Positions 1-19,978 of a stretch of DNA of 64,000 nt are shown in pieces (the first letter of the stretch is position 1; every line of letters starts with the position of its first letter). The position numbers were made by a program, and so were the translations under genes. The notes under the pieces were generated by a model, which saw nothing but the letters and a program-made list of their open reading frames with translations, made no database searches and was not told the DNA's origin. The DNA comes from Candidatus Latescibacterota bacterium (GTDB lineage Bacteria; Latescibacterota; UBA2968; GCA-2709665), in NCBI GenBank assembly GCA_965219995.1, contig CBDCOX010000002.1:3232001-3296000 (forward strand), given 5' to 3'.

Positions 1-51
1 ACGTATCCATCGGATATGCTGCGCCCGGAGCGATTCAGAGGGATCGAGCGG

Positions 52-1470
52 CTAATTCTTCAACGCTTCCAACCCGAACCGTTCCGTGGTCTCGAGCGTC
101 TCCCTCACGTCGTCCCAGCTGGTGTTGTGGTTGAGGATGCACATCCTCAGCGAAAACGTCCCGTGAAGAAGCGTCGACGAAAAAAACGCCCGATCTTCCC
201 AGAACACGCGCGCAAGCACCTTCCTGTTGATTTCTTCCAATGCCGCTTCGTCCAGCTCCTCGCCGGAAGGATTCACGCGAAAACAAACCACGCCCAGCGA
301 CACGGGCGTCAGAAGCTCCAGGTTCGGACGCTTCTCCACGAATTCCCCGGCGCGGACGGCAAGCTCCATACCCCTGGATACAGCGCGCCGGAACGCCGCC
401 ATGCCGAACGTCTGCACGGACATCCAGATCTTCAACGCACGCACAGACCGGCTCAGTTGCAGGCCCCGGTCCGCGATGTTGGGATGGTTCGCGCCCCATA
501 CCGTATCCTGCAGGATATCCGGATGCACACCGAAAGCGCGCTCGAGAGTGCCCTCGTCCTTGACGAGGAGGCCGCCAGCCTCGTACGGCTGGAAGAACCA
601 CTTGTGGGCATCCAGACCGATCGAATCGGCGCGCGCGATTCCACGCAGCAACGTACTGCCACGCTCCGTCACAAGCGCGAAGCCGCCGTAGGCCGCATCC
701 ACGTGAAGCCAGATCCCTTCCGCCTCGCAGAAATCCGCCATCGCCGCCAGCGGGTCAATTGCCCCGGTGCTGCTGGTTCCCGCGTTTGCGCAGACCGCGA
801 TGGGGTTGAACCCCGCCGCGCGATCCTCGGCCACCGAGCGCGCCAGCGCGTCCACGTCCAGCCGGAACCGTTCATCGCTGGGAATCATGCGGGTACATTC
901 CGGGCGTACGCCCACGATCCCGGCCGCGCGGACGTGCGCGCTGTGGCTCTGGTCGCTCATGTAGACGGTCGCGCGATCGGGATGGCCCGCGGCTTCACGA
1001 GCGGCTACCAATGCGTCGATGCTGGCGGCCGAACCCCCGCTCGTGAGCAGGCCGCCCGCGCTTTCAGGATAGCCGACCCAGCGTCGCAGCCAGTCGATCA
1101 CCACCAGTTCAAGTTGACTCGGACCGCTGGCGACCAGCCAGGTGCACGCGTTGACATTGTATCCGGCCGCCAGGAAATCGGCGAGCACGCCCGGCCACGT
1201 GGGCGACGAGGGGATGAATCCGAAGCATCTCGGATGGTCGAGCCGAGTCGTGAATGGAAGGATCTCCTTCGCGGCCTGATCCATCACCTCCTCGGCCGGT
1301 CGCCCCGCCTCCGGGGGCGCCTCCATCAACCGATGTTCGAGTTCGCGCCGGAACTCGCCGTCCCATGCGCCTTCCTCGGGCAGGTTTTCGGCCCGCGCAA
1401 CCAGGAGTTCGGCAGCTTTACGCGCCAGTGCGAGCATCGCCTGGGGCGACATCTGAAGATCGCCGCACAC
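52..1470 (-). CDS. PLP-dependent group II (aromatic-L-amino-acid-type) decarboxylase
   Basis: HPRCFGFIP, TSGGS, SDQSHS, GTSSTGAIDPL, WLHVDAAYGG and DAHKW (PLP lysine) motifs; exact start uncertain. Confidence 0.9.
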   Translation of the reverse strand: MCGDLQMSPQAMLALARKAAELLVARAENLPEEGAWDGEFRRELEHRLMEAPPEAGRPAEEVMDQAAKEILPFTTRLDHPRCFGFIPSSPTWPGVLADFLAAGYNVNACTWLVASGPSQLELVVIDWLRRWVGYPESAGGLLTSGGSAASIDALVAAREAAGHPDRATVYMSDQSHSAHVRAAGIVGVRPECTRMIPSDERFRLDVDALARSVAEDRAAGFNPIAVCANAGTSSTGAIDPLAAMADFCEAEGIWLHVDAAYGGFALVTERGSTLLRGIARADSIGLDAHKWFFQPYEAGGLLVKDEGTLERAFGVHPDILQDTVWGANHPNIADRGLQLSRSVRALKIWMSVQTFGMAAFRRAVSRGMELAVRAGEFVEKRPNLELLTPVSLGVVCFRVNPSGEELDEAALEEINRKVLARVFWEDRAFFSSTLLHGTFSLRMCILNHNTSWDDVRETLETTERFGLEALKN

Positions 1471-1686
1471 GCCGTTGTTCTTTTTCTTATCGGATCCTAT
1501 GGCGCCGTCTCGTTGTTCTTTGTTGACTCTCGGGGATTTGCGACACGACCGCCCTGTTATTGCCGCCTGTCGGTGTTACGGAGGTTCCAGGCAGGAAGCC
1601 AGGACCCGATTAGTTCATTTATTTGCACTAAATGGGTTGACATCCCCCAGGAAAACGCACATATATAATACAAGGGAGACGCGGAA

Positions 1687-1751
1687 TTGCAAACCAGAAC
1701 CGATCAGGTCCGGCGCCGGCTGGAAAAGGAAAGGCCGGTTGGCTTGAATAA
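1687..1751 (+). pseudogene. hicA: Internally deleted HicA toxin remnant
   Basis: RBS AAGGGAG, then TTG-MQTRTDQVRRRLEKE (HicA-like N-terminus) joined out of frame to KAGWLE-stop (HicA-like C-terminus), immediately upstream of hicB. Confidence 0.6.
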
Positions 1752-1775
1752 ACGAGTTGGAAGGAGGACCCGCGC

Positions 1776-2162
1776 GTGGCTCGTTATCCCGCGCTGATCG
1801 ATGGCGAAACCGGCGCTTATGGTGTGACGTTTCCCGGTATTCCCGGCATCGTCGCCATGGGAAAAACCGTGGACGAGGCGCTGATGAACGCCGAAGAAGC
1901 GCTTCGCGACTATGTAGTCGAGGCCGAGAAGGACGGAGAGACGATACCGCCGCCAGGGGCTCTGGAACGGGTGGAGGTCCCGAACGGACAGGCGCTTGTG
2001 TCCGTCCCGCTGATTCGAATCTCCGGCCGGAACGTACGCGCCCACATGACGCTGGACGAAGGCGTCGCGGCGTTTATCGACGGTGAGGCGCGAAGACGCC
2101 GTATGACCCGCAAGGCCTATGTCGAATGGATGGTCCGACGTATCGCGGAGATGGGCGGATAG
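1776..2162 (+). CDS. hicB: HicB family antitoxin with C-terminal DNA-binding (RHH-like) region
   Basis: YPALIDGETGAYGVTFPGIPGIVAMGKTVDEALMNAEEAL; RBS AGGAGG. Confidence 0.85.
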   Translation: MARYPALIDGETGAYGVTFPGIPGIVAMGKTVDEALMNAEEALRDYVVEAEKDGETIPPPGALERVEVPNGQALVSVPLIRISGRNVRAHMTLDEGVAAFIDGEARRRRMTRKAYVEWMVRRIAEMGG

Positions 2163-2193
2163 GCGCCGCAAACGCACGCCCGGATACGGACCC

Positions 2194-3723
2194 TTATTCG
2201 AAAACGACCAGTTCGCCGTTCCTTACGACCAGCACGACCGGATCGTAAACCGCGTCGCCGCTTTCGTCGAATGAAAACGAGCCCAGAACCGTTTCCAGGT
2301 CCCTCGTACCCGCCATCGCGTCTCGAATCGCGCCCGCGTCGGTTGACCAGGCCCCGGCGATTGCTTCCGTGAGAATGTACATGGCGGCGTACGACTGCGC
2401 GGCCCACGTGTCAGGTTCAGTACCGTATTTCGTTACGTAATTCTCCACAAAGGTCTCATTGCCCGGCGTGGAAGCCGCGCCCGACCAGCTGACAAATGAA
2501 ATCGCGCCCTCCGCAGCGTCACCCGCGGCCTCGACTTCAGCCCTCGACAGAGCGGGAACGAGAAAGGTTACGTTCGAAGCTATGCCGACCTCGCGCGCCT
2601 GAATCAAAATCTCCGATAGTTCGGTACCCAGGGCCGAGACGAAGACGGCATGCGGATTCAACGCCTTGATGCGCGTTAACTGTTCCGTAAAGGTGGTATC
2701 GCCGGTGTTGATGGTTTCTCGCGCCAGGATTTCGACGTCGATTTCGGCCAGTGTGTTTCTGATCGCCTCGTCGCTGCTGCGGGAGAAGAGGTCGACCTCG
2801 TCCACGATCATGGCGACTCTACGATACCTCAGCTTTTCCTGTGTCTCCCTGACCGAGCCGGGGACAAGCGCATTGACGTTCAGTCCGGCGCGGAAGATAT
2901 AGTCGCCTATCGCGCTCAGGCCGGCCGCGGTCGACGTGGAACTGAACGCAATGACCTCGTTCCGCTGGGCGATGGGAAACGCTTCCCTGGCGGCGGTGGA
3001 AATCACAGGACCGAGTATGGCGGACACACCGTCCTTGTCGATCAGTCTGTTGAACGCTTCAACGGCTCCGTCCGCGGTACCTCGTGAATCCACGACAATG
3101 AAGCGGATGCGCGCGCCGCCAAGTTTCGATGAACCGTTGATTTCGTTCTGCGCCAGCGCAAACCCGTCTCGCGCGGGAAATCCGTATCGCGTCTGCGGGC
3201 CTGTCAGAGGAAGAACGACACCGATCGCAATCTCCGCCGGAAGCCCGCCGGGCGCCAGCATGATCGAACCCGCCACGCGGGCTCTGTCGCCGACCGGCAG
3301 TTCGACCGTCGTTTCGTAGCCGCCGTTAACGGGAATACTGGACCAGGTTCCCAGCACACGACCGCCCCGTATCGCGCGCGCGCGGTAATAACCGGTCACC
3401 CGGTCATCTCCGATATTGATCCTCGCCCGGCCGCGGGCGTTGGTTGTGCCCGACCACATGTACTCCGCGGCCCTCCCCGAAACGGATCGTCCGAGTTCCA
3501 CGGTGACGCCGCTTACCGGCGTCTGATCCCGTGTTGCGCGGGCCACCACAACCGCCAATGCCCGGTCCCCACCCGAAGCCAGTTTGCCCAGCGGCCCCAC
3601 CGCCTGCCCGTCGGCCTCCGGCAATTGAGACGTCGTCAACCGATCGCCGGCGCAACCCCATGCTGCGCATATGGCCAGAGCCGGCAACAACACACTGCGG
3701 ATACGGAAAGATTGATTACGCAT
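2194..3723 (-). CDS. Lipoprotein: RSxSGR domain plus branched-chain amino acid-type (PBP1/LivJ) substrate-binding domain
   Basis: ATG 3723 with GGGG RBS; lipobox AWGC; IGVVLPLTG, ILGPVIS, AIGDYIFR and C-terminal GSFSFDESGD. Confidence 0.85.
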   Translation of the reverse strand: MRNQSFRIRSVLLPALAICAAWGCAGDRLTTSQLPEADGQAVGPLGKLASGGDRALAVVVARATRDQTPVSGVTVELGRSVSGRAAEYMWSGTTNARGRARINIGDDRVTGYYRARAIRGGRVLGTWSSIPVNGGYETTVELPVGDRARVAGSIMLAPGGLPAEIAIGVVLPLTGPQTRYGFPARDGFALAQNEINGSSKLGGARIRFIVVDSRGTADGAVEAFNRLIDKDGVSAILGPVISTAAREAFPIAQRNEVIAFSSTSTAAGLSAIGDYIFRAGLNVNALVPGSVRETQEKLRYRRVAMIVDEVDLFSRSSDEAIRNTLAEIDVEILARETINTGDTTFTEQLTRIKALNPHAVFVSALGTELSEILIQAREVGIASNVTFLVPALSRAEVEAAGDAAEGAISFVSWSGAASTPGNETFVENYVTKYGTEPDTWAAQSYAAMYILTEAIAGAWSTDAGAIRDAMAGTRDLETVLGSFSFDESGDAVYDPVVLVVRNGELVVFE

Positions 3724-3758
3724 TGGATCCCCTTGTTCTTCGGAGTTCAGGACCTTTC

Positions 3759-3838
3759 CAGCCCGTTGAAAAAGCCCACCCGGACTGCGTCCGGCCCTTG
3801 CGGCCGAAACCCTGCGTTGCGACTTTGTCAACGGACTG
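3759..3838. mobile_element. 80-bp MITE-like element with 16-bp imperfect terminal inverted repeats
   Basis: CAGCCCGTTGAAAAAG at 3759 and CTTTGTCAACGGACTG ending 3838 (14/16 complementary); abuts the stop codon of the upstream gene. Confidence 0.55.
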
Positions 3839-5449
3839 TTACGGCTCGAACCGATAGACCACCGGCAATTGCGAAGGGTCGGTGACATTCGGATCCGTGT
3901 GGTGATAGATATTGATGCGCCCGGTTCCGCAATCTCCAAACTCATCGCTGGAGATCGTGCCGATGAGACCCTCGAATCCGGACGTGGCGAAGAGCTCCCG
4001 GCGCAGCGCGTTGCGGTCGACGATCAACGATTCGTCGTCCTGAATCGCCACGGACGCGATGGCGCTGAGCAGCAGCGTCGCGGCGTCGTAGGAGTGCGCC
4101 CAGTACGGCGTGCCCGGAAACCCGCCGTGCGCGGCTTCATAGGCGGTCAGGACGTCCTCAACGCTTTTTCCGGTTACCGCATTGACATTTGTGCCCAGGT
4201 CTGCCTCCGGCCCGGCAGCGTAAACGCCCTCGGACTGCGGGGTGGCCAGAAATTCCGAATCGAGAAGGGCCGCGCCCGTGATAAGCGTCACGCTTTCCAG
4301 GCCGTCGAATTCCTTCGCCTGCTTCGCAAATGGTATTCCTTCCTCGTCGAAGAGCGGGAAGAAGATTCCGTCCGGCCCTGCCTCGGCAAACTGCGTGAGG
4401 ACGGAGGTCATGTCCTCTTGCCCCTTGTCTATCCGGGCGCTGACCGGTACCTCGCCTCCCACGGCGGCGAACGCATCGCCGAACGCACTGACGAGGGCCG
4501 TTGTGTACGGGTCGCCGTCGTCCAGCGCTACCATGCGCCTCAGACCCAGTTCATTGTACGCGAAGTCAGCCACAGCCCGTGCCTGGTAGAGGTCGTTGAC
4601 CGCAACGCGAAAGTATCCGGGGTGGTAGTCGGAACTTGCGTTGCCCGCCAGATCGGACGTCAGCCTCGGCGACGTATTGGACGGCGAGATCATTACGAGC
4701 CCGGCTTCGCTGATCACCGGCGAGGCGGCCACGGCCGCCCCGGAGCAGGAGGTCCCGATAACCCCCAGCACCCGCGAATCCGCGACAATCTGTTCCGCCC
4801 CCGCGCGTCCGCCGTCGGGACCGCACATGCCGTCGATTGCCTCACCGAGTTCGACGCCGTGTCCATGGATCATTCCAAAATCGGCAACGGCCAGTTCAAC
4901 GGCATTTCGCGACGGATTGCCAAGCGACGCGGCGATGGTGTGCGTGAGCAGCGAACGAATGTGCACGGCCTCGCCTCCGCCAATCGTCACCAGGGTCCGG
5001 ACGTATGTACCCGTCACGCGTGCGTTTCCGCCAACGGGCAGATCGACCATGACTTCGTACCCCATGTTAACGGGTATGCTCGACCACGAACCGAGCAGGC
5101 TCCCGGCATCCATGGCGCGGACCTGATAGTAACCTCCGCCCGACGCGACTTCGACCCGCGCCAGGCCGTTCGCGTCGGTGGCGCCCGACGACTGGAAGCT
5201 GGCCGCCCGTCCTGAAATCGATCGCGCGATTTCCACCGTAACGCCGCCCAACGGCATTTGACCGTCCAGCACCCGGCCCACGACCAGGGCCGGAGTCACG
5301 TCCCCGCCGGAAGCCAGTTTGCCCAGCGGCTGACCGCCCGGTTCGCCGGACTCAGGTGCCTGCGACGTGGTCACGGGTTCCCCGCCGCAGCCCCAGGTTA
5401 CTGCTGCGACGAGTGTCAGCGCCAATAGACTGCGAGCCCGGTTAAACAT
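3839..5449 (-). CDS. Lipoprotein: RSxSGR domain plus LivJ-like substrate-binding domain
   Basis: ATG 5449 with GGAGG RBS; lipobox TWGC; DGMC...IGTSCSGA, ISPSNTSP, GYFR..ND..Q, YDAATLL. Confidence 0.85.
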   Translation of the reverse strand: MFNRARSLLALTLVAAVTWGCGGEPVTTSQAPESGEPGGQPLGKLASGGDVTPALVVGRVLDGQMPLGGVTVEIARSISGRAASFQSSGATDANGLARVEVASGGGYYQVRAMDAGSLLGSWSSIPVNMGYEVMVDLPVGGNARVTGTYVRTLVTIGGGEAVHIRSLLTHTIAASLGNPSRNAVELAVADFGMIHGHGVELGEAIDGMCGPDGGRAGAEQIVADSRVLGVIGTSCSGAAVAASPVISEAGLVMISPSNTSPRLTSDLAGNASSDYHPGYFRVAVNDLYQARAVADFAYNELGLRRMVALDDGDPYTTALVSAFGDAFAAVGGEVPVSARIDKGQEDMTSVLTQFAEAGPDGIFFPLFDEEGIPFAKQAKEFDGLESVTLITGAALLDSEFLATPQSEGVYAAGPEADLGTNVNAVTGKSVEDVLTAYEAAHGGFPGTPYWAHSYDAATLLLSAIASVAIQDDESLIVDRNALRRELFATSGFEGLIGTISSDEFGDCGTGRINIYHHTDPNVTDPSQLPVVYRFEP

Positions 5450-5987
5450 GCCAAGTCCCTCCATTCTGGCGATAATCTGCGAATTGGAAACGAAAAGAGT
5501 TCGGGCGTTTCGGAGACCTTTCAGAAACGAACATCAATGACCCGGTCACGCGGGCTTTTGCGCCAACCGGCAATTCAACCGTGGATTCGTACCCCGCGTT
5601 GATCGGGATGCTGGTCCAGGAGCCCAGTGAGATCCCTTCCTGCGTCGCCCTCACGCTATAATAACCGCTTACGCCGCTTCCTGCAATCTCCACGCGCGCG
5701 CGCCCGCGCGCGCCGGTCTTACCCGACCACGCATAGTCTGCCGCCCGCCCGGAGACGGATCGAGCGAAATGGACGGTGACGCCGCTCAGCGGCGCCTGAC
5801 CCTGCCGGACGCGAACGATGACCGAGGCCGGGGTCGTGTTGGCGTCTAAAGCGAGTTTTCCCGGCGCGCGGCGAACCCCGACCCCGCCTTCCGGAACCTG
5901 CGAGGTTGTCAAGCGTTCGCGGCCGCAGCCCAACACCAGGAATCCGGCCAACGCCAAAACGGACACACGGCGCAAGCTCTTGAGCAT
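5442..5987 (-). CDS. Lipoprotein consisting only of the RSxSGR domain (stand-alone or truncated paralog)
   Basis: ATG 5987 with AAGGAG RBS; lipobox VLGC; FARSVSGRAADYAWSGKTG...GYYSVRA...GSWTSIPINAGY followed by a short unrelated tail. Confidence 0.7.
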   Translation of the reverse strand: MLKSLRRVSVLALAGFLVLGCGRERLTTSQVPEGGVGVRRAPGKLALDANTTPASVIVRVRQGQAPLSGVTVHFARSVSGRAADYAWSGKTGARGRARVEIAGSGVSGYYSVRATQEGISLGSWTSIPINAGYESTVELPVGAKARVTGSLMFVSERSPKRPNSFRFQFADYRQNGGTWHV

Positions 5988-6050
5988 TTCAGCGCTCCTT
6001 ATCGCAGAACCTGAGAGTCCCGACTCCGGTTGTACCGTTGGGCACAGACC

Positions 6051-6088
6051 CCAAAATGACAGGCAGCGTACACTGCCTGTCATTTTGG
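6051..6088. repeat. 38-bp near-perfect palindrome
   Basis: CCAAAATGACAGGCAG-cgtaca-CTGCCTGTCATTTTGG, perfect 16-bp arms. Confidence 0.85.
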
Positions 6089-6328
6089 CGAAACATTCAC
6101 CAGGTTAACCTTGATTCGTCATTTTCCGGTGACGTTACATCGTATATACGCAAGTCAACAACGGCGATTCGACGTCGGATTTTCTGGAACCTTCAGGTCA
6201 CTGGAGGTGAACGGAAAAAACGTCCGTTTCGACGACCTCTTCGGCCCAATTCGGAAGATCTTGCCGCGGTGCAGCGTTGCTTTTTTTTCTCGAATTCCGG
6301 AATCTACTCCCGAGCGCCGCGGAGCGCA

Positions 6329-7945
6329 TCACGGTCCGAACCGATAGACCACGGGCAACTGCGCCGGGTCTACGATGCTCGTGTCCGTGTGGTGATAGAT
6401 GTTCACGACACCGGTGCCGCAGTCTCCGAACTCGTCACAGGTGAGTTCCCCGATGAGACCGGGGAAGCCGGCTGTGGCCCCGATTTCCGCGCGCAGCGCA
6501 ACGCGGTCAATGTACAATTTCCCGCCATCGGTCACCGCAACGGCGTTGATGGCGCCCAGCAGCAGCGTCGCCGCGTCGTACGCGTGCGCCCAGAAGGGAT
6601 TGGTATGGGTCCCGCCGTAGATTGACTCGATCTCCGCAAGAACCGCACTTCCGCTCTTGCCGGTGGCGATATTGACGTTTTCGCCGTGAACCGGCTCCGG
6701 CCCGGCAAAATAGACGCCCTCGGACTGCGGCGTGCCGAGGAACTCCGAAAGGAGGAGGGCCGCGTCCGTGAGGAGCGTCGCGTCTTTCAGACCGTCGACC
6801 TCCCGAACCTGCACGGCGAATGGCGAGCCCTCTGCGATGAAGAGAGGAAAGAAGATGCCGTCGGGTTCGGCATCCGAAAATTCCGCAAGGACGGACGTCA
6901 TGTCCGTCTGTTCTTTCTCGATCCGGGCATTGACCGGGACCTCGCCGCCCAATTCACGGAACGCATTGCCGAACGCAGTGGTGAGACCCATGGTATACGG
7001 GTCGCCGTCGTCGATGGATACCATCCGCCGAAGGCCCAGTTCGTTGTATGCGAAGTCGGCGACGGCCTGCCCCTGGTACAGGTCGTTGTTGGCCGTGCGA
7101 AAATAGCCCGGGTGATAGTCCGGACTGGCGTTGCCGAAGAGGTCGGACGTGAGCGTCGGCGACGTGTTGGCCGGCGAGACCATCACCAGGCCCGCCGCAC
7201 TCAGCAGAGGTGAAGCCGCCACCGCGGATCCGGAACACAACGTGCCGATGATGCCGAGCGCCTGTGGATTGGCGATGACCTGCTGTGCGCTGGCGCGGCC
7301 GCCTTCGGCCGAACACATGCCGTCTATGGGATCGCCAAGCTCAACCTCGCGACCGTGGATCGGGCCGAAATCCCGAATGGCCAACTCGGCGCTGTATCGC
7401 GCCCAATCCGAAACCGAAGGCACGATGACGTGCGCAAGCACGGTACGGATTTGCACAGCCTCGCCCTCGCCATACGGTACCACGTCCCGAACGCTTGAAC
7501 CCGTCACGAGCGCCCCGCCGTCAACGGACAGTTCGACCTGCGTTTCATATCCTTCGTTAACCGGAATGCTCGACCACGAACCCAGAACGTTGTCGTCCTG
7601 CGTCGCCCGCGCCTGGTAGTATCCCCCCACCCGGGCGCCGCCGATAACAACCCTTGCCCGGCCGCGGGCATCGGTTGTGCCCGACCACTCAAAGTTCGCG
7701 GAACGGCCCGATACCGAACGCGAGAACGCCACGGTGACGCCTTCGACGGCCGTCTCGCCATCTTGCACGCGGGCCAGAACCGCGGCCTGCTCGACGTCTC
7801 CGCCGGGAGCCAGCTTTCCGAGCGCCTGCCCCGGCTGATCCTCTGCCTCAGGCATCTGTGACGTCGTCACGCGCTCACCACCGCAGCCCCACGCCAGAAC
7901 TGCGACAAGCGCCGGCAAAAACAAACTGCCGTTTCGTGAGAACAT
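6329..7945 (-). CDS. Lipoprotein: RSxSGR domain plus LivJ-like substrate-binding domain (close paralog of 3839-5449)
   Basis: Lipobox AWGC; long near-identical stretches with 3839-5449 (ADFAYNELGLRRMV, QLPVVYRF). Confidence 0.87.
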   Translation of the reverse strand: MFSRNGSLFLPALVAVLAWGCGGERVTTSQMPEAEDQPGQALGKLAPGGDVEQAAVLARVQDGETAVEGVTVAFSRSVSGRSANFEWSGTTDARGRARVVIGGARVGGYYQARATQDDNVLGSWSSIPVNEGYETQVELSVDGGALVTGSSVRDVVPYGEGEAVQIRTVLAHVIVPSVSDWARYSAELAIRDFGPIHGREVELGDPIDGMCSAEGGRASAQQVIANPQALGIIGTLCSGSAVAASPLLSAAGLVMVSPANTSPTLTSDLFGNASPDYHPGYFRTANNDLYQGQAVADFAYNELGLRRMVSIDDGDPYTMGLTTAFGNAFRELGGEVPVNARIEKEQTDMTSVLAEFSDAEPDGIFFPLFIAEGSPFAVQVREVDGLKDATLLTDAALLLSEFLGTPQSEGVYFAGPEPVHGENVNIATGKSGSAVLAEIESIYGGTHTNPFWAHAYDAATLLLGAINAVAVTDGGKLYIDRVALRAEIGATAGFPGLIGELTCDEFGDCGTGVVNIYHHTDTSIVDPAQLPVVYRFGP

Positions 7946-8040
7946 AACGAGTCACCTCCAATTTTTCAGACGTCGAAAAACGGAATCCATACCCGAAAGC
8001 GGCGACTATGGACGCCGGAACCTGCCGGCGATTTTAACGT

Positions 8041-8076
8041 AAAACAGCCTCCGGACACATTGGCATCCGGAGGCTG
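8041..8076 (-). terminator. Probable intrinsic terminator or stabilising hairpin
   Basis: 11-bp stem CAGCCTCCGGA/TCCGGAGGCTG followed by TTTT on the minus strand, just after the stop at 8092. Confidence 0.55.
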
Positions 8077-8091
8077 GAGACGTGTACTTGA

Positions 8092-9609
8092 TTACTCGAA
8101 CGGCTCGAATGCGCCGTCCCGGACGATCAGCACGATGGGATCGTAGACCGCGTCGCCGTCGTCGTTGAACGAGAAGGTGCCCAGAATCGTGTCGACGTCC
8201 CGGGTAGCAGCCATTGCATCCTTTATTGCGCTCGCGTTCGTCGATCCGGCGTTTGCGATCGCATCCGCGAGTATGTTCAGCGAGGCGTACGAAAGCGCGG
8301 CCCACGGACCCGGTTCACTGTCGTGTTCCGCCATATAACTATCAATGAAGGTCTGATTCCCAGGCGTGGAAGCATTGGTTGCCCAACTCGTAATGCTGAT
8401 CACGCGTTCCGCGGCCTCTCCGGCGGCGGCGACTTCAGTCAACGTCATTTCCGGGATAATGATGGGAATATTCGAGGGTATGCCAACTTCACGGGCCTGG
8501 ACCATAATTTGAATCATTTCCGCTGCCAGACACGAAACGAAGAGTGCGTGCGGATTCAGATCTTTGATATTGTTCAACTGGTCCGCGAACGATGTATCTC
8601 CCGTCGCAAAGGTCTCCCGGCCCAGAATCTCAACCTCGCCTTCCACAAGGGAATTGCTTACGGCCTCGTCCAGGCTCCGGGAATAGACGTCGGCGTCGTC
8701 AACCATTGTGGCTACCCTGCTGAACCTCAGTTTCTCCTGCAATTCCTTGACGGCGCCGGGAACCAGCGTACCCACGTTGAGGCCGGAGCGGAAAATATAA
8801 TCGCCGATCGCGCTCAGGCCAACAGCGGTTGAGGTCGAACTGAATGCCAGGACTTCGTTCCGTTGGGCGATCGGGAACACTTCCTTTCCGACGGTGGAAA
8901 TGCCGGGGCCCAGGATGACGTTCACGCCGTCTTCGTTGATGAGTTTGTTGAACGCCGCGGTGGCAGCGTCGACCGTACCTTCCGTATCCTCGACGATAAA
9001 TTCGATACTTGCGCCGCCGAGCCTCGCAGAGTTGTTGATTTCTCCTTGAGCCAACTCAAAGCCTTCCAGCGCCGGCACGCCGTACACGTCCTGAGGACCC
9101 GTAAGCGGCACGGCGACACCAATGGCGATCTTTGCGGGCAGACCGCCTGGCGTCAGCGCGATCGAACCGGTCGCGCTCGCCTTGTCGCCGATTGGCAGTT
9201 CAACTGTCGACTGATACCCGCTGTTGATCGGTATGCTCAACCACGAACCGATCTCGCTTCCGCCACTCATGGCCCGCGCCGCATAGTAGCCCGTTACACC
9301 GGCGCCGCCGATATCCACGTACGCCTTGCCCCGCACGTTGGTCGTTCCGGACCATTTGAAATCGGCCGCCCGACCGGAAACCGAACGCGAGAACTCGACG
9401 GTAGCGCCGCTGACCGGCATGCCGCCGTCCTGCACGTTCGCTACGACCACGGCCCGCATCATTCCGTTCAGGGCCAGCTTGCCCAGGGGTTGGCCGGCGC
9501 CGTCCCCTGCCTCCGGTATCTGCGACGTTGTAAGGCGCTCGCCGCCACAACCCCATATCAGACCTGCGGAAAGCGCAAACAGCAACACACTGCGAACACT
9601 CCGAAACAT
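8092..9609 (-). CDS. Lipoprotein: RSxSGR domain plus PBP1 substrate-binding domain (paralog of 2194-3723)
   Basis: Lipobox IWGC; shares FPIAQRNEV.AFSSTSTA.GLSAIGDYIFR and GDAVYDP with 2194-3723. Confidence 0.87.
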   Translation of the reverse strand: MFRSVRSVLLFALSAGLIWGCGGERLTTSQIPEAGDGAGQPLGKLALNGMMRAVVVANVQDGGMPVSGATVEFSRSVSGRAADFKWSGTTNVRGKAYVDIGGAGVTGYYAARAMSGGSEIGSWLSIPINSGYQSTVELPIGDKASATGSIALTPGGLPAKIAIGVAVPLTGPQDVYGVPALEGFELAQGEINNSARLGGASIEFIVEDTEGTVDAATAAFNKLINEDGVNVILGPGISTVGKEVFPIAQRNEVLAFSSTSTAVGLSAIGDYIFRSGLNVGTLVPGAVKELQEKLRFSRVATMVDDADVYSRSLDEAVSNSLVEGEVEILGRETFATGDTSFADQLNNIKDLNPHALFVSCLAAEMIQIMVQAREVGIPSNIPIIIPEMTLTEVAAAGEAAERVISITSWATNASTPGNQTFIDSYMAEHDSEPGPWAALSYASLNILADAIANAGSTNASAIKDAMAATRDVDTILGTFSFNDDGDAVYDPIVLIVRDGAFEPFE

Positions 9610-9952
9610 AGCGAACCCTCCCGATGTTGTGGGCTACCGGCGAAACAGAGCCAGGAAGCGGCAAACGGCAAGCGCAAGAAACCTACCCGTCCGAATCGGC
9701 CCCCGACTCGTCGACACATTACGTATATAAACAGAATGCCACAACCTGAATATCGAACAACCTGCCGACAGCGTTCGACTGCGCCGCGCTATTTGGCAGT
9801 AATATTGAATATAAGCGCATTTCGCGTGTACACAAGGGCATATTGAAATTTCTTTTTCAATATTGCGGCGGTTTTCCGAATGCGGAAGCCGTCGCGGCGG
9901 CGATTTGACGTCCTCCAGGTCCGGCCTGGACGGTTGCACGGCAGGACCTGTA

Positions 9953-11575
9953 TCAGATGCCGAGGATCCCTCGCGCTGCCTGGCGCGCGTCTTCCAGCGT
10001 TTCGACAACGCGGTGCCTGGGTAGATGTCTCAGGATGCCGAGCGCGTTCAGGGTTCGCGGAACCAGGCCGGACAGACCCATTACAATGCATTCGGTCTGC
10101 TCGCCTTTGGCGATATCCATGAGTTGCCCGATGACCATGGCTGCGCTGTCGTCGAGATAGTTGGCCCCTGAAAAGTCGAAGATGACCACATCGTGGTCTT
10201 TGATGTCCGCGCCAATGACGCCGGCCAGCTTGTGGGAGGATGCGACGGTGAGACTTCCTCTGAGCGCGACCAGACCGACCCGCGCAGAGTACGGACTCAG
10301 CGCGTCGGCGTCCATGTCTTCCTCCTCGGCGAAGAACGCCCGGTCCAGCAGCGGCACGGAGACCACGCTGTCCAGCTCCAGTCGTTCCAGTTGCCGGGCG
10401 TGCACCATTCCGGCGGCGATCAGACCGATTGCCACGGCCGTTACCAGATCGACAAATACCGTGAGTCCAAGCGTAATCATCATGACGATGAGATGCTCCC
10501 GCCGCAGCCGGTGAACGCGGGTAAGAAGACGCCAGTCGACGACATCCCATCCGACCTTTATCAGAATGCCGGCGAGAACCGCATGGGGAATCGGCTCCAC
10601 GTACCGCCCGAGACCCAGCATCAGAAACAGCAGGAGTAACGCGTACAACGCACCGGAGACCGGCGTCACCCCGCCGGCGCGTATATTGGTTACTGTCCCG
10701 GTGGTGGAACCCGCGCCGGGCAGCCCGCCAAACAATCCCGATACCATGTTGCCGATCCCCTGCCCAACGAGTTCCCGGCTCGCGTGGTGCCTCGTGCCGG
10801 TCAGTGAATCGGCAACCAGTGAGGTGAGGAGGCTGTCCACCGAACCGAGAAGCGCGAGGATGAGCGCAGGTTCCAACGCCATCATCAAGAAGGAGACCGT
10901 GGGCAGCGTCAGTTGCAGATCGGGCAATCCCGTGGGTATCCGGCCGATAACCGGTACGTCTTTCAGCCAGAAGACGCCGAGCAGCGTCCCGGCAAGCAGC
11001 GCCAGGAGCGGGCCGGGCAGATATCTTGCGAAGCGTCGCGGCCAAAGCACTCCGACGGCGAGCGCGACCGTGGCGATGGCCAGCGCGTTATAATTGACAT
11101 TGTCCACCGCATCCAACACAGCGCGAATCGTGCCCACGACGCCGCCCGGCGCCGCGGGGGATCCCAGAAACGGCAGGATGTGAATCACCATGATGATGAT
11201 TCCGATCCCCGACATGAACCCGGAGATGACCACGTGCGGCGTATAGGCGACGAATCGGCCGATCCTCGACAAGCCGAGTAGCACCTGCAGCAGACCGGCC
11301 ATGACGACCACTGTCAGGGCTTCTGAAAGGTTGGACGTGTAGCCCGAAACTATGACCACCAGGGCAACCGTCATCGGCGCAGTGGGGCCCGAAATCTGGG
11401 TCCGGGTACCGCCGAATACCGCCGCGAAAAAACCCACCGCGATCGCGCCGTACATCCCCGCCGCCGCGCCCATTCCCGACGCGACGCCCAGGGCCAACGC
11501 CACGGGCAGCGCCACCACGGTTGCCGTGATGCCGCCGAAAATGTCGCCCCGCAGCGCACTCAAGTCATATTTCAT
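9953..11575 (-). CDS. SulP family anion (sulfate/bicarbonate) permease with STAS domain
   Basis: GDIFGGITATVVALPVALALG, ISGPTAPM, ELVGQGIGN; C-terminal STAS motif DFSGANYLDDSA. Confidence 0.92.
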   Translation of the reverse strand: MKYDLSALRGDIFGGITATVVALPVALALGVASGMGAAAGMYGAIAVGFFAAVFGGTRTQISGPTAPMTVALVVIVSGYTSNLSEALTVVVMAGLLQVLLGLSRIGRFVAYTPHVVISGFMSGIGIIIMVIHILPFLGSPAAPGGVVGTIRAVLDAVDNVNYNALAIATVALAVGVLWPRRFARYLPGPLLALLAGTLLGVFWLKDVPVIGRIPTGLPDLQLTLPTVSFLMMALEPALILALLGSVDSLLTSLVADSLTGTRHHASRELVGQGIGNMVSGLFGGLPGAGSTTGTVTNIRAGGVTPVSGALYALLLLFLMLGLGRYVEPIPHAVLAGILIKVGWDVVDWRLLTRVHRLRREHLIVMMITLGLTVFVDLVTAVAIGLIAAGMVHARQLERLELDSVVSVPLLDRAFFAEEEDMDADALSPYSARVGLVALRGSLTVASSHKLAGVIGADIKDHDVVIFDFSGANYLDDSAAMVIGQLMDIAKGEQTECIVMGLSGLVPRTLNALGILRHLPRHRVVETLEDARQAARGILGI

Positions 11576-11609
11576 TGCAACGTTTCCTTCGTGTCCTTTC
11601 GGATCGCAT

Positions 11610-12076
11610 AAAAGCGGTGAGACGGTAGAGAAAAGCGGTGAGACGTAAGAGGGTAGACGGTAGATGATAACGTTACCACAGTGTTTTCAAGCTAACCGTG
11701 CCTGTTTTTTTACCGAAATGGTAACGACAAGAAAGACCATAGGGCACTGATGTCATCTCCCGTCTCACGTCTACCCTCTCACCGCTTTTGACGGGCCGGG
11801 GGGAGAGGTCTGCGTAAATTCGGTGAGACGTAAGAGGGTAGACGGTAGAGGAAGACATTTACAGCAGTGTTTCCCTACAAACCGTGCCTGATTATTTACC
11901 GCTATCGTAACGACAAGAAAAACCATACGGCATTGATTTCACGTCACGTCTACCCCGGAGTTGAAGGGTTGTGGGGAGAGGTCCGCCCGTATCGCTGATA
12001 GATTTCGCCAGTCCATATCGATATCCTGCAGGCACGGTGTCATCATCTCACCTCTCACGTCTTACGTCTCCCCCGG
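11610..12076. repeat. Cluster of composite repeat elements with heptamer-built inverted arms
   Basis: CGGTGAGACGTAAGAGGGTAGACGGTAGA at ~11636 and ~11821 with complementary arms at ~11752-11789 and ~12040-12076; two diverged copies of the internal core. Confidence 0.8.
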
Positions 12077-12176: not shown

Positions 12177-12833
12177 ATGCTGAGATTCCCCGAAGAACTC
12201 ATGCTCCTGATACTCGACGACGAGAACGGGAGGTTCGCCCGTGTTCCGGACCAGTCCCTGCGTTATGCGCTCGCCGGCGGGGTGCTGATGGACCTGGCGA
12301 TGGAGAACCGCATTGACACCGATCCGAAGCAGCTTGTTCTTGTGGATTCGACTCCCGTAAACGACAGCCTCCTCGATCCGACGCTCGCCGACATCTCGCA
12401 GGCTGAAGAAACACACGACGCGCGCTATTGGGTGGAACGCACCGCCATCAGCAGCGCCGCGGGCATTCGAGAGACGTCTCTGGACCGGCTGGTTGAAAAA
12501 GGAATCCTGGAACGCCGTGACGACCGGTTTCTGTGGGTCTTCCGGTCACGGCGGTATCCCGTCGTGGACGACCAGGCCGAGCGGGAAGTCAAGCTCAGAA
12601 TTATGGAGATCCTGTTCAGCGACCAGATTCCCGACCCTCGCGACGTGGTGATCATCAGCCTTGCGCACGCCTGCAACCTCTTCAGCCAGATATTGTCCGC
12701 CAGGGAACTGGCGCGCGTGGCCCCCCGGATCAACCAGGTGCGGAAGCTCGATCTGATCGGCCAGGCGACGTTCCGGGCGATCACGGAAATTGAACTGTCG
12801 CTCGCTATGGCCGTACAGATGCGTCCGTATTAG
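12177..12833 (+). CDS. GPP34/GOLPH3 (Vps74) family protein
   Basis: EELMLLILDDENG, ALAGGVLMDLAMENRI, LVEKGILER...FLWVF...RYP; RBS AAGGA. Confidence 0.8.
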   Translation: MLRFPEELMLLILDDENGRFARVPDQSLRYALAGGVLMDLAMENRIDTDPKQLVLVDSTPVNDSLLDPTLADISQAEETHDARYWVERTAISSAAGIRETSLDRLVEKGILERRDDRFLWVFRSRRYPVVDDQAEREVKLRIMEILFSDQIPDPRDVVIISLAHACNLFSQILSARELARVAPRINQVRKLDLIGQATFRAITEIELSLAMAVQMRPY

Positions 12834-16464: not shown

Positions 16465-17769
16465 TCAGGATTTACCGGCCGCGAGGATCCCGTATCGCTG
16501 TAACGTACTCGCCAGCGTGGGACGACCCAGCCGAATCCTGCCGTCGTTCAGCAGGTATGTGAACAGATATCCGACGCCGAGCATGAGGATCCCGATCAAA
16601 AAGCAATACATGACCGCTCGATCCGGATATACATCCTTGAGATATCCGACGTACAGGGGACCTGAGATGCCGGCGGCCGCCCAGGCCGTCAGGACGGCGC
16701 CGTAGATGGTGGACATCTTCTTCGTGCCGAACACGTCGAGGACGAAAGGGGGCATGGTCGCGAATCCGCCGCCGAAGCAGAGCAGGACGTAGCAGACCAG
16801 AGCCGAAAATATCCAGGGGTTGGTTTCCGTCATGAGGATGCCGAAGACGACCATCTGGCTGGCGAGGAGTACCCTGAAGACGGTAACACGGCCGAACCGG
16901 TCGGATAACAGACCCCAGAACAGTCGCCCCAATCCGTTGCAGATGGAACTGACGGCAATAAGCGTCGCGCCGTACTCAGCCAGTGTACTCGGTTCGATCG
17001 AACTGTCCGCCAGGCCCCAGATCTCCTGGAGGATTTCCGACTGGAAGCTGATGACCGAGATTCCTGCGGCGATGTTGAAGAAGAAGACGATCCACATGAT
17101 CACGAACTGGGTTGTCTTGAGGTACGATACAGCAGAATCCGGTTCCCCGTAATCCAGCGCGTCATCCGGTGCGCCGCCCGCGGGTACCGCTGACGCAGGC
17201 GGATCGCTGAGGGCCAGGCTGCAGGGAAGCAGTATGGCGCCGAATATGATCCCGAGCCAGATAAAAACAAGTGGAAGCGTGCCCGCTGTTGTTACGATCA
17301 AGAACGGCGCCAACCCCTTGCTCAAGAGGAAGGCGCCAACGCCGAAGCCCATAACGACGATACCCGTGGCCAGGCCCTTGCGGTCGGGGAACCACTTCGC
17401 TACGGTCGCGACCGGCGTGACGTATCCCAGCCCGATTCCCGCGCCGCCGATCACGCCGTAACCCAGGTAGAAAAGCGGTATGGAATCCATGTGAAGCGCG
17501 GCTCCGGAAATCAGGTATCCGCCTGAAAACAGGATGCTGCCGGTGACCGCCAGAAACCTTGGGCCCAATCGAGAGAGCATGTTGCCCGCCCAGGCCGCCG
17601 AGACGCCCAGCGTAAAAATCGCGATACTGAAGGCCCATGCCGTCTCCGTATGCGTCCAGCCGCCCTGATGCACCAGGATCGTCTGGAAGAAACTCCAGGC
17701 GTAGACCGTGCCGAAGCATACCTGCAGAACCGTGCAGAACAGCGCAATAGCGCCTCTTGGAATGCGCAA
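16465..17769 (-). CDS. OFA (oxalate:formate antiporter-like) MFS transporter
   Basis: GTVYAWSFF, GLGYVTPVATVAKWFPDRKGLATG, NGLGRLFWGLLSDRFGR. Confidence 0.9.
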   Translation of the reverse strand: MRIPRGAIALFCTVLQVCFGTVYAWSFFQTILVHQGGWTHTETAWAFSIAIFTLGVSAAWAGNMLSRLGPRFLAVTGSILFSGGYLISGAALHMDSIPLFYLGYGVIGGAGIGLGYVTPVATVAKWFPDRKGLATGIVVMGFGVGAFLLSKGLAPFLIVTTAGTLPLVFIWLGIIFGAILLPCSLALSDPPASAVPAGGAPDDALDYGEPDSAVSYLKTTQFVIMWIVFFFNIAAGISVISFQSEILQEIWGLADSSIEPSTLAEYGATLIAVSSICNGLGRLFWGLLSDRFGRVTVFRVLLASQMVVFGILMTETNPWIFSALVCYVLLCFGGGFATMPPFVLDVFGTKKMSTIYGAVLTAWAAAGISGPLYVGYLKDVYPDRAVMYCFLIGILMLGVGYLFTYLLNDGRIRLGRPTLASTLQRYGILAAGKS

Positions 17770-19896: not shown

Positions 19897-19978
19897 TCGG
19901 TTCCTCTTCAGCTGAAATACGGATTTGCCTGCATCACCGGGGGCTTCCGCGCCAATTCGATCGCAGGCCGGCCGATCC

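Follow-up and report, generated by a model that had tools for sequence, protein, structure and literature searches.

A lineage-restricted domain with a predicted transthyretin-like fold lies beside putative lipoprotein and type IX sorting anchors in Candidatus Latescibacterota

Results

The window analysed here is a stretch of 64,000 nucleotides from an assembled Candidatus Latescibacterota genome. Five minus-strand genes, all co-oriented, span positions 2194–9609, and gene calls and alignments bear out the sequence-only reading, which had proposed that they encode lipobox proteins sharing a domain, here delimited to about 105 amino acids. In all five products the N-terminus is composed of a hydrophobic stretch ending in [WL]GC, a conserved tether of about 27 residues (GGER.TTSQ.PE...PLGKLA in the alignment of the array products) and the domain. 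Gene A (2194–3723) encodes a predicted lipoprotein signal (Cys24), the tether, the domain (3253–3570) and a HAAT/LivJ-type PBP1 head (about 2248–3234; Peripla_BP_6 E 9.5e-56); its signal peptide starts from the ATG at 3723 and not from the earliest ATG in the frame (3945). Gene B (3839–5449), also with a predicted lipoprotein signal (Cys21) and tether, carries the domain at 4994–5305 and a divergent PBP1 head at about 3947–4933 (E 1.8e-36). The domain-only gene (5442–5987) encodes 181 amino acids: a predicted lipoprotein signal, the tether, the domain (5526–5843) and an unrelated tail of 28 amino acids. The same signal (Cys21) and tether are found in gene B' (6329–7945), with the domain at 7484–7801 and a PBP1 head at about 6443–7402 (E 7.2e-29), and in gene A' (8092–9609), with the domain at 9151–9468 and a PBP1 head at about 8146–9129 (E 5.6e-56). 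The order A-B-(domain only)-B'-A' with four LivJ-type heads, already described from the sequence, stands, all four Peripla_BP_6 matches being above the Pfam cut-off (E 5.6e-56 to 7.2e-29). The heads are 62.7% identical between A and A', 64.8% between B and B', and 25–27% between A and B, and the N-terminal modules of the array genes are 51–61% identical in every pair. In the AlphaFold2 model of full-length A' (pTM 0.84), the domain and the PBP are confidently modelled and residues 1–49 are predicted to be disordered (pLDDT <50).

The array is flanked by a PLP decarboxylase, a HicB-like gene and a SulP transporter; as first noted, no ABC permease or ATPase is present among these neighbours. A stretch of the window was found in metagenome runs that two studies label as sponge, and the organism is uncultured. 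Contigs of the metatranscriptome library X20 (90–97% alike) cover parts of genes A and B' only; such cover does not show transcription, and the gap over the domain-only gene is uninformative. A read-depth peak at 6044–6327, considered as a sign of expression, was rejected as its source is a dispersed repeat. An Rfam scan of window positions 1–12000 gave just two sub-threshold, chance-level matches.

The 28-amino-acid tail of the domain-only gene overlaps the start of gene B. This gene was considered as a conserved architecture and rejected, as each of the 22 best relatives of its product from other species continues into a larger C-terminal part (one of them is cut short in the stored locus). 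Furthermore, a genome of the same genus carries A-B-B'-A' with the same flanks and without a domain-only gene. From these two observations, the domain-only gene is probably what is left of a third, truncated A-type gene. An assembly error does not account for it, since contigs of DNA runs X5 and X6 span the region, with 7 and 3 differences respectively.

The sixth copy of the domain, previously noticed in an unrelated secreted protein, was indeed found there: it lies at 56825–57154 in a plus-strand gene (55832–57421) encoding a predicted Sec signal, two Cache domains (dCache_2, 4e-30), the domain and a T9SS type A C-terminal sorting domain at about 57170–57409 (FlgD_ig, 1.3e-12; TIGR04183, 41.5 bits for a cut-off of 23). 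The six copies align with a mean column identity of 64%, and a genome search with a profile made from them recovers those copies at E 1e-40 to 1e-50, well outside what chance would give. This search identifies 20 copies in the genome, 11 after a lipobox and 9 before a sorting domain. The sixth copy and the 8 other copies of the sorting-domain type are predicted T9SS type A cargo, as they score above the TIGR04183 cut-off in a genome that encodes the machinery: SprA is detected at 628 bits, and a PorV/PorQ-family gene (155.8 bits, cut-off 90) lies directly upstream of three tandem head-domain-sorting-domain genes, while PorU-like and PorV matches to equivalog models are below their cut-offs in this genome. 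Proteins of this kind, with a head and a sorting domain but without a signalling output, are encoded in tandem arrays (three genes at C2:4567863-4573984) and by the gene of the sixth copy. The domain is absent from 12 of the 21 proteins with a sorting-domain match in the genome, and is therefore not a general T9SS requirement. A literature search found no paper joining 'Latescibacter' and 'type IX secretion', and a term search of a sponge Latescibacterota genome paper gave no mention of lipoproteins, substrate-binding proteins or secretion systems (PMC12993501).

Among 1.84 billion (1.84e9) protein representatives, 513 match the domain at E<=1e-3, and almost all the named matches are from Candidatus Latescibacterota. 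Within the phylum, 85 of 168 genomes match, and the matches are concentrated in families f1–f4 (84/131) as opposed to ten other families (0/36). Two queries yielded 28 loci, of which 25 are titled Latescibacterota or Latescibacteria, two come from one MAG titled Gemmatimonadota and one is from an 'uncultured bacterium'; a third query, the distant member P0144, gave no locus among genome contigs. The domain is thus a lineage-restricted family of one class of Candidatus Latescibacterota, in agreement with the lineage-specific module that had been proposed. In addition, the domain profile cross-matches 24 giant proteins over the first two thirds of Big_1/CarboxypepD_reg repeats, and all seven of these that were scanned carry such repeats. 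Six residues, R28, G32, W39, W76, S78 and P80, are 92–99% conserved among 134 copies, which otherwise diverge to 31% identity.

The AlphaFold2 model of the domain (pLDDT 91.6) has eight strands. In VIA-align its best match is 3e8v_A (Z 10.1; 81 aligned, rmsd 2.3), followed by YedX (Z 10.0), transthyretin (Z 9.8), transthyretin-like domains of carboxypeptidase D (Z 9.4 for 5aq0, 9.0 for 1qmu) and the SusC N-terminal extension 9hfj (Z 8.1); the best Foldseek matches are also transthyretin, with a TM of only 0.45–0.51. The domain is thus modelled as a beta-sandwich of the transthyretin/CarboxypepD_reg type, and the earlier guess of a prealbumin or carboxypeptidase-regulatory sandwich was correct at this level (Z ~10). 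The relation to transthyretin and 5-hydroxyisourate hydrolase is one of fold only, with no sequence relation to solved members: the six-copy profile finds no match at E<=1 among all PDB sequences. The nearest named ESM clusters are PF13620, and hhalign aligns the 134 copies with the 17 genuine CarboxypepD_reg domains of the genome over 77 columns at 67.4% probability (E 5e-5), a suggestive value below the usual 90–95%, compared with 6.6% for the control with the genome's T9SS sorting domains. PF13620 scores of the genome and window copies are 17.2–18.9 bits and the best of 110 relatives reaches 30.6, for a cut-off of 32.3; a genome-wide PF13620 search gives 28 matches at E<=1e-3, of which 17 pass the cut-off, and the 20 domain copies are not among the matched places. 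The Big_1 (PF02369) cut-off of 34.9 bits is likewise unreached (13.5–21.4 for the genome copies, 28.7 for the best relative), and a generic Big_1 repeat was rejected for this reason and because the fold matches transthyretin-like domains. NCBIfam has no model for the domain. RSxSGR lies within an eight-residue loop (S-x-S-G-R...Y.W) inserted relative to canonical CarboxypepD_reg, and W.SIP on a predicted beta-strand. The motifs had not been recognised from any named family, and indeed no Pfam or NCBIfam threshold is reached; however, they sit in a CarboxypepD_reg-like frame, so that the domain is more likely a new subfamily within a known superfamily than a new domain without relatives.

Among 120 representatives, the domain is proximal to a lipobox in 57, directly before a sorting domain in 37 and in both positions in one; 9 are truncated fragments and 16 are of other kinds. 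It is separated from the sorting domain in four representatives, by another domain or by some 160 residues (Laminin_G_3 in three). The heads are diverse, with binding proteins, Cache, SodC, SnoaL, esterases, cytochromes, LRR, WD40, NHL, lectin-like domains and others. Small-molecule-binding heads had been suggested to be the main partners, but PBP, OpuAC or Cache heads account for only 22 of the 110 family members scanned, 43 having other recognisable heads and 45 no recognised head, so that the domain is not confined to binders of small molecules. In a tree built from 111 domain segments, copies of the lipobox type group separately from those of the sorting-domain type, with 14 changes at the fewest compared with a shuffled mean of 35.2; this tree is poorly resolved (57 of 108 inner branches are open) and its well-supported branches force only one change of anchor type, so the 14 switches are not established. 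Because the two types cluster apart, they could represent two functionally distinct subfamilies.

In the array products, the hydrophobic stretch leads to the Cys of the putative lipobox at residue 21–24 (28 in the domain-only protein); position -1 is G, and position -2 is L or W, the latter being unusual there. The same pattern is found in 58 relatives, and LspA is encoded in the genome. The residues after the Cys are most commonly GGER (17 of 58 relatives), then SGDR, GSER and GGDR. The Bacteroidota lipoprotein export signal, C-X-K-(D/E)2-X or Q-A-(D/E)2 directly after the Cys (PMC5080379), is not found in the 58 relatives, which have no acidic pair after the Cys.

The solved structures closest to the four heads, 4gnr, 4nqr, 3td9 and 1z15, are binders of branched-chain or hydrophobic amino acids (E 1.8e-28 for A', 5.3e-17 for B'), which suggests that these heads are probably amino-acid-binding proteins of the HAAT family. 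This genome (98.6% complete) has 14 Peripla_BP_6 matches (PBP1 genes) and no match to the LivH/M-type permease PF02653, while the control is positive in 12 of 14 genomes. PF02653 is absent from all 15 genomes of the genus and present in 5 of 7 from sister genera; these binding proteins therefore cannot feed a canonical Liv transporter.

Discussion

With moderate confidence, we propose that the domain acts as a stalk next to the anchor, within a cassette for display at the envelope or surface. A sandwich of about 105 amino acids would sit between the membrane anchor and the functional head and hold the working part off the membrane, the anchor being either an N-terminal lipidated Cys with its flexible tether or a C-terminal T9SS sorting domain, and the heads would be interchangeable and self-sufficient in function. 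The word 'display' in the sequence-only reading suits these observations, as the domain sits on exported proteins beside an anchor. The array in the window would present four HAAT-family heads on stalks, and because the genus is devoid of a LivH/M permease the most likely role of these heads is ligand capture or sensing at the cell surface or envelope, and not the supply of a Liv-type ABC importer. PBP1, OpuAC and SodC heads are classically periplasmic, and for this reason the lipoproteins may face the periplasm, with only the T9SS cargo outside.

The strong conservation of R28, G32, W39, W76, S78 and P80 hints at a specific contact and counts against a pure spacer, for which a loop motif would be dispensable. 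The domain might then be a docking or oligomerisation handle, whose RSxSGR and W.SIP face ties all carriers to one partner (a PorV/PorQ-type barrel, LPS, peptidoglycan or an S-layer) or pairs the carriers with each other, in the manner of transthyretin, which dimerises through edge strands. The persistence of these family-specific residues in copies that otherwise diverge so far, the 51–61% identity of the A and B N-terminal modules where the heads keep only 25–27%, the transthyretin-like fold at Z ~10 and the PorV/PorQ-family gene adjoining one tandem array all go in this direction. Nevertheless, the nine other loci examined have no partner gene in common on a consistent basis, and several conserved positions hold residues usual in the core or in turns (Trp, Gly, Pro, Tyr). 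We regard a docking role as rather unlikely.

We give less credit to a cis-acting aid to export or processing, in which the domain, together with the tether motif, would be read by the T9SS sorting and sortase machinery or by a lipoprotein surface-flipping route. In its favour, 37 of the 120 representatives have the domain directly against the sorting domain and 57 have it directly against the lipobox tether, and the tether, although predicted to be disordered, keeps the motifs GGER.T and L[GSA]K.A. This hypothesis is difficult to reconcile with the 12 of 21 sorting-domain matches that do without the domain, with the unrelatedness of the lipoprotein and T9SS export routes, or with a tether unlike the Bacteroidota signal C-X-K-(D/E)2 (PMC5080379). 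Least probable of all is an adhesive or carbohydrate-binding module that would bind a host or matrix glycan and so hold cells or their enzymes on the sponge matrix. Weaker structural matches to CBM41 (2j71, Z 8.2), CBM26 (6b15, Z 7.3) and pilin or adhesin CnaB-type domains (Z 7–8), the sponge metagenome runs of two studies and the many eukaryote-like repeats among the partner heads are compatible with it; yet Z 7–8 is background for beta-sandwiches according to VIA-align's own note, and the anchor side is the least exposed place for an adhesin.

The proposed anchor-proximal stalk can be compared with several known systems. PF13620 CarboxypepD_reg domains, in the transthyretin clan (5aq0, 1qmu, the Bacteroides fragment 3e8v and the SusC-type extension 9hfj), have the same sandwich fold (Z 8.1–10.1), their TDxxG turn and G-Y-Y strand align with the stalk domain, and both are accessory domains on envelope proteins. 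The stalk domain differs from them by its eight-residue inserted loop and its W.SIP.N strand, by scores below the Pfam cut-off, by its restriction to one Latescibacterota class, and by its use beside predicted lipid or T9SS anchors. In Bacteroides, SusE, SusF and surface glycan-binding proteins have a lipid anchor, an N-terminal Ig-like sandwich, thought to project the binding part outward, and binding domains, i.e. the same order of anchor, sandwich and binding part as in the array lipoproteins; in contrast, they belong to another phylum and family, carry the acidic export signal that is missing here, and have glycan-binding heads encoded beside SusC/D. LivJ/HAAT binding proteins are matched above cut-off by the four array heads (Peripla_BP_6), but the latter are predicted to be lipid-anchored through an extra N-terminal domain and are not encoded beside livHMGF, in a genus without a LivH/M-type permease. 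In the Porphyromonas gingivalis proteins RgpB, Kgp and PPAD, an IgSF domain proposed to be a spacer or insulator precedes the T9SS C-terminal domain (available part of PMC4804311). It is likewise a small beta-sandwich directly before a type A sorting domain, between head and anchor, but its fold is Ig and not transthyretin-like, no sequence relation to the stalk domain was found, and that part of the source does not report it at a lipoprotein N-terminus.

A more speculative model, to which we assign a low likelihood, makes the lipobox-tether-sandwich and sandwich-sorting-domain units two forms of one phylum-specific surface display cassette, with which sponge-associated Latescibacterota would expose, outside the outer membrane, their solute-binding proteins (PBP1, OpuAC, Cache), their redox enzymes (SodC, cytochromes) and proteins with eukaryote-like repeats. 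After the loss of LivHM in the genus, the PBP1 lipoproteins encoded in tandem would serve as receptors for amino acids outside the cell, handing host-derived ligands to non-ABC uptake or to sensor kinases, with the RSxSGR/W.SIP face docking to a shared outer-membrane partner.

This work names a recurrent, uncatalogued piece of Latescibacterota exported proteins, about 100 residues that are now unannotated in hundreds of proteins. As the domain marks proteins with predicted lipid or T9SS anchors, it offers a way to catalogue the proteins that these uncultured sponge symbionts display. The lack of a Liv permease throughout the genus, beside the many putatively lipid-anchored LivJ-type proteins that are retained, provides a clear-cut natural example in which binding proteins are uncoupled from ABC import. 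One gene with the domain and a PBP lies directly after an operon encoding a SpoIIE-type response regulator, an RsbW-like protein, a PBP6 and a HAMP histidine kinase, and in another genus a hybrid histidine kinase gene comes after the A-B-B array.

The five-gene array

Five genes on the minus strand, at 2194-3723 (A), 3839-5449 (B), 5442-5987 (domain-only), 6329-7945 (B') and 8092-9609 (A'), encode products with an N-terminal hydrophobic stretch that ends in [WL]GC, followed by a tether with the conserved sequence GGER.TTSQ.PE...PLGKLA and then by a domain of ~105 amino acids, the stalk domain. The signal peptide of gene A is read from the ATG at 3723, within an open frame that extends to 3945. 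The six copies of the stalk domain in the window have 64% mean column identity when aligned. Four of the five products match Peripla_BP_6 well over the Pfam cut-off (E 5.6e-56 to 7.2e-29), and these PBP1 heads are of two types, as A and A' are 62.7% identical in the head, B and B' 64.8%, and A and B only 25-27%. The frames, alignments and head identities thus bear out the sequence-only reading, which had described five co-oriented lipobox genes sharing a motif-bearing domain, four of them fused to LivJ/PBP1-type heads of two paralogue types. It was also right that no permease or ATPase is adjacent: the array is flanked by genes for a PLP-dependent decarboxylase, a HicB-like protein and a SulP transporter, and no ABC permease or ATPase adjoins it. 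Any two of the N-terminal modules share 51-61% identity (62-70% at the DNA level), and therefore no recent gene conversion has taken place in the array.

The domain-only gene encodes a stalk domain with no head. Its closest relatives, at 22 loci in other species (one of them incomplete as stored), all have a larger C-terminal part, mostly an A-type PBP. A genome of the same genus has the order A-B-B'-A' with identical flanks and no domain-only gene, and other genomes of the genus have runs of six closely spaced stalk-domain matches. Through the 28-residue tail of its product the domain-only gene overlaps the start of gene B, and it is found in independent DNA runs. From these comparisons we read it as the probable remnant of a third A-type gene.

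Between B' and the domain-only gene lies a dispersed intergenic repeat of ~140-190 bp (6103-6300), with ~39 more copies in the genome, at 70-87% identity and on both strands, one of which (C2:1922338-1922480 of that genome) is just upstream of another domain-PBP gene; its dispersed copies account for a spike of read depth at this place. A 38-bp palindrome (6051-6088) is located beside the repeat. At 12177-12833 the window carries a GPP34 (Golgi phosphoprotein 3-like) gene, which is syntenic in another genome of the genus; this family is tied to sponge symbiosis in an excerpt of a 2025 paper (PMC11706023).

Fold and relatives of the stalk domain

The AlphaFold2 model of the stalk domain, built on a 36-row alignment, has eight strands (pLDDT 91.6, pTM 0.82). 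Foldseek against the PDB places transthyretin on top (E ~1e-4), with a TM of only 0.45-0.51. VIA-align against 48,161 chains, where Z <8 is background according to the tool's note, gave 3e8v_A as the best match (Z 10.1, 81 aligned, rmsd 2.3), then YedX (Z 10.0), transthyretin (Z 9.8), the SlaB S-layer stalk protein (Z 9.6), the transthyretin-like domains of carboxypeptidase D (Z 9.4 and 9.0) and the SusC N-terminal extension (Z 8.1), with CnaB pilin domains and carbohydrate-binding modules at Z ~7-8. The model and the Z values of ~10 to 3e8v_A, YedX and transthyretin show that the earlier guess of a prealbumin/carboxypeptidase-regulatory fold was correct. By ESM features the domain adjoins PF13620 clusters (scores 0.92-0.94).

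Stalk-domain copies and their relatives stay below the Pfam cut-offs for CarboxypepD_reg (at most 30.6 bits against 32.3) and Big_1 (at most 28.7 against 34.9), NCBIfam has no match on the domain, and no PDB sequence matches the profile at E<=1. The PF13620 model recognizes 17 genuine domains in the window's genome, mostly on frames of ~1000 amino acids, and none of the 20 stalk-domain copies. Profile-profile comparison of 134 copies with these 17 CarboxypepD_reg domains gave 67% probability (E 5e-5, 77 columns), a suggestive value below the usual 90-95%, compared with 6.6% for a control with the genome's sorting domains. In this alignment the two families have in common a TDxxG turn and a G-Y-Y strand, and differ in the S-x-S-G-R...Y.W stretch, by which the stalk domain is 8 residues longer between strands 2 and 3. 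The residues most conserved in the 134 copies are R28 (96%), G32 (98%), W39 (92%), T43 (97%), G47 (99%), G60 (100%), Y62 (97%), W76 (98%), S78 (99%) and P80 (96%). A relaxed RSxSGR pattern is found in 78 of 114 representatives and W.S[IVL]P in 104 of 114, and all 20 genome copies carry both of these patterns. The most fitting description of the stalk domain is that of an uncatalogued offshoot of the CarboxypepD_reg/transthyretin superfamily, specific to this lineage.

Size and range of the family

Searched with a profile of the six copies, the window's genome yields 20 copies (E 4.7e-50 to 2.0e-21), and 1.84 billion protein representatives yield only 513 matches at E<=1e-3, a number that falls to 259 at 1e-10 and to 25 at 1e-30. 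The best 150 of the 513 include one junk repeat and 24 giant proteins that match only profile positions ~5-72 and have no motifs; the seven giant proteins scanned were all Big_1/Invasin_D3/CarboxypepD_reg repeat proteins. We dropped 30 of these 150 (giant repeat proteins, partial matches and the junk repeat) and kept 120. Two queries yielded 28 loci in named genomes. The title is Candidatus Latescibacterota or Latescibacteria for 25 of them and 'uncultured bacterium' for one, and a single MAG titled Gemmatimonadota accounts for the other two; a third query, the distant family member P0144, found no locus in named-genome contigs. Of 168 genomes of the phylum, 85 have matches at E<=1e-5, with 1 to 21 copies each. 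By family, the matching genomes are 21 of 21, 30 of 31, 3 of 3 and 30 of 76, all in the window's class, and at the same threshold none of 36 genomes from ten other families matches. These genome counts and the titles of the 25 loci agree with the lineage-specific domain that had been supposed. The window stretch itself occurs in DNA runs from two studies with the label sponge metagenome and from one with the label marine metagenome, and long contigs of two DNA runs (X5 and X6) cover it with few differences.

Position of the domain and its partner heads

In the window's genome 11 of the 20 copies follow a lipobox and nine immediately precede a T9SS sorting domain, which for one of the nine is in another frame, indicating a frameshift. 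The same two placements prevail among the 120 representatives: the stalk domain is within 70 residues of the lipobox Cys in 57 and within 45 residues of the sorting-domain motif in 37; one has both placements, nine are truncated fragments and 16 are 'other', among them four with a domain or ~160 residues between stalk and sorting domains (Laminin_G_3 in three) and several more that resemble fragments. The tether from Cys to domain has a median of ~27 residues and carries the motifs GGER.T and L[GSA]K.A. In the full-length model of A', residues 1-49 have pLDDT <50, and confidence is high for the domain, the junction and the PBP; a pTM of 0.84 for 505 residues, 49 of them disordered, suggests a rigid placement of the sandwich relative to the PBP. 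The tree built from 111 domain segments requires at least 14 changes between anchor contexts, against a mean of 35.2 after shuffling (none of 500 shuffles was as low); since its well-supported branches force one change only, we regard exchange of the domain between lipobox and sorting-domain contexts as possible.

By Pfam, the 20 copies of the window's genome are joined to six PBP1 heads, one Cu/Zn superoxide dismutase (Sod_Cu, 2.3e-38), one OpuAC glycine-betaine-type binding head (4.6e-37), one NigD_C-like head, seven Cache-type heads (strong for the sixth window copy, dCache_2 just below the cut-off for four of the six others, no Cache match for two), a 1366-amino-acid protein with choice-of-anchor I and 5'-nucleotidase domains, and two heads without a Pfam match, the domain-only gene being headless. 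A Pfam scan of 110 family members (E<=1e-5) recognized small-molecule binders (11 Peripla_BP_6, 1 OpuAC, 10 Cache), 7 SnoaL, 3 esterases/lipases, 2 Exo_endo_phos, 5 LRR, 5 WD40, 4 NHL, 4 with Laminin_G_3, 3 cytochromes (P460, MtrC-like, CCP_MauG), 3 Temptin_C, one Sod_Cu on its own (a further SOD is fused to a PBP) and 6 others; 17 members have only a sorting domain, one only a weak Big_1, and 27 nothing. The proposal that the heads bind small molecules is therefore too narrow, as such binders are common (22 of the 110 members, and 22 of the 65 whose head is recognized) but not the rule.

Export machinery and sorting-domain genes

The secreted protein in which a sixth copy had been noticed at ~56.9 kb is encoded by the gene at 55832-57421 on the plus strand; it has a Sec signal, two Cache domains, the stalk domain (56825-57154) and a sorting domain of T9SS type A, for which TIGR04183 gives 41.5 bits (cut-off 23). 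The window's genome has 21 sorting-domain matches, nine of which fall on stalk-domain genes. This genome also encodes SprA (628 bits, with neighbouring pieces), a PorU-like protein that scores under the cut-off, LspA, and proteins of the PorV/PorQ family. One gene of this family (155.8 bits, cut-off 90) is located immediately upstream of a tandem of three head-domain-sorting-domain genes. The tether has no match to the lipoprotein export signal of Bacteroidota, C-X-K-(D/E)2 as given in an excerpt of PMC5080379.

The PorV/PorQ-family gene and the three tandem paralogues, each with a 400-amino-acid Cache-like head, a stalk domain and a sorting domain, occupy L028:3369-10985 (a locus of the window's genome, G000:C2:4566368-4573984). 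A DUF6785/DUF6784 membrane protein is encoded downstream, and two more DUF6785 genes flank another stalk-domain copy, at locus L024. At L027:5078-6703 (G000:C2:4251865-4253702) a conserved Cache-type N-terminal part, on which the Pfam scan gave no match in that copy, is followed by a stalk domain, with the sorting domain in a different frame; this is either a frameshifted gene or a sequencing error.

Possible roles of the stalk domain

The best-supported reading, towards which we lean, is that the domain acts as an anchor-proximal stalk: a lipid or T9SS anchor would be followed by the rigid sandwich, and this by an interchangeable head. The T9SS delivers its cargo to the outside of the outer membrane, and the module is common to both kinds of anchor, which suggests that the lipoproteins are perhaps surface-exposed too. 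Such exposure runs counter to the location of PBP1, OpuAC and SodC proteins, which is classically periplasmic. The placement is comparable to that of the Ig-like domain ahead of the sorting domain in RgpB, for which its authors propose, in an excerpt of PMC4804311, a role of spacer or insulator.

The domain may instead serve in docking or oligomerisation, which would fit the strong conservation of the inserted loop; we hold this to be unlikely. That it is an aid to export or processing seems to us more doubtful still, and a glycan-binding module is the least probable of these roles. For the anchor-proximal stalk that we prefer, the transthyretin-like fold and the principle of a small sandwich next to an anchor are already known. 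What is new relative to Pfam and NCBIfam at threshold is the family, its inserted motif loop, the dual use with lipobox and T9SS anchors, and the restriction to one class of Latescibacterota; we found no account of the family in the literature.

Orphan binding proteins and their neighbours

The closest solved relatives of the heads are HAAT-family amino-acid binders (4gnr and 4nqr for A', E ~2e-28; 3td9 for B', 5.3e-17). The window's genome, 98.6% complete, has 14 Peripla_BP_6 matches and none to BPD_transp_2 (PF02653, LivH/M), in a search whose control matched in 12 of 14 genomes. No match to this permease is found in any of the genus's 15 genomes, of which several are single contigs, and two or three matches are present in five of seven genomes of sister genera. 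No ABC importer is beside the stalk-domain gene at nine other loci examined. The window array (decarboxylase at 52-1470) and the OpuAC fusion (L021:3178-4581) both adjoin a group II PLP-dependent decarboxylase, which may be a hint that the binding proteins are linked to the metabolism of amino acids or amines. This flank of the array is kept in the same-genus genome.

Signalling genes also occur nearby. A cluster at L023:6775-14595 (G000:C2:1946774-1954594) combines partner-switching and two-component functions: STAS, a response regulator-SpoIIE protein, an RsbW-like kinase, a plain PBP1 (PBP6) and a HAMP histidine kinase. The gene of a stalk-domain PBP1 lipoprotein directly follows this operon, and a hybrid histidine kinase comes after the A-B-B array of another genus. 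Elsewhere in the window, 18529-20205 encodes another binding protein without an ABC partner, a Tat-signal PBP1 protein whose likely start is the methionine of MDFPNW; its gene adjoins those of a membrane sCache_3_2 protein (17784-18527) and an MFS transporter (16465-17769).
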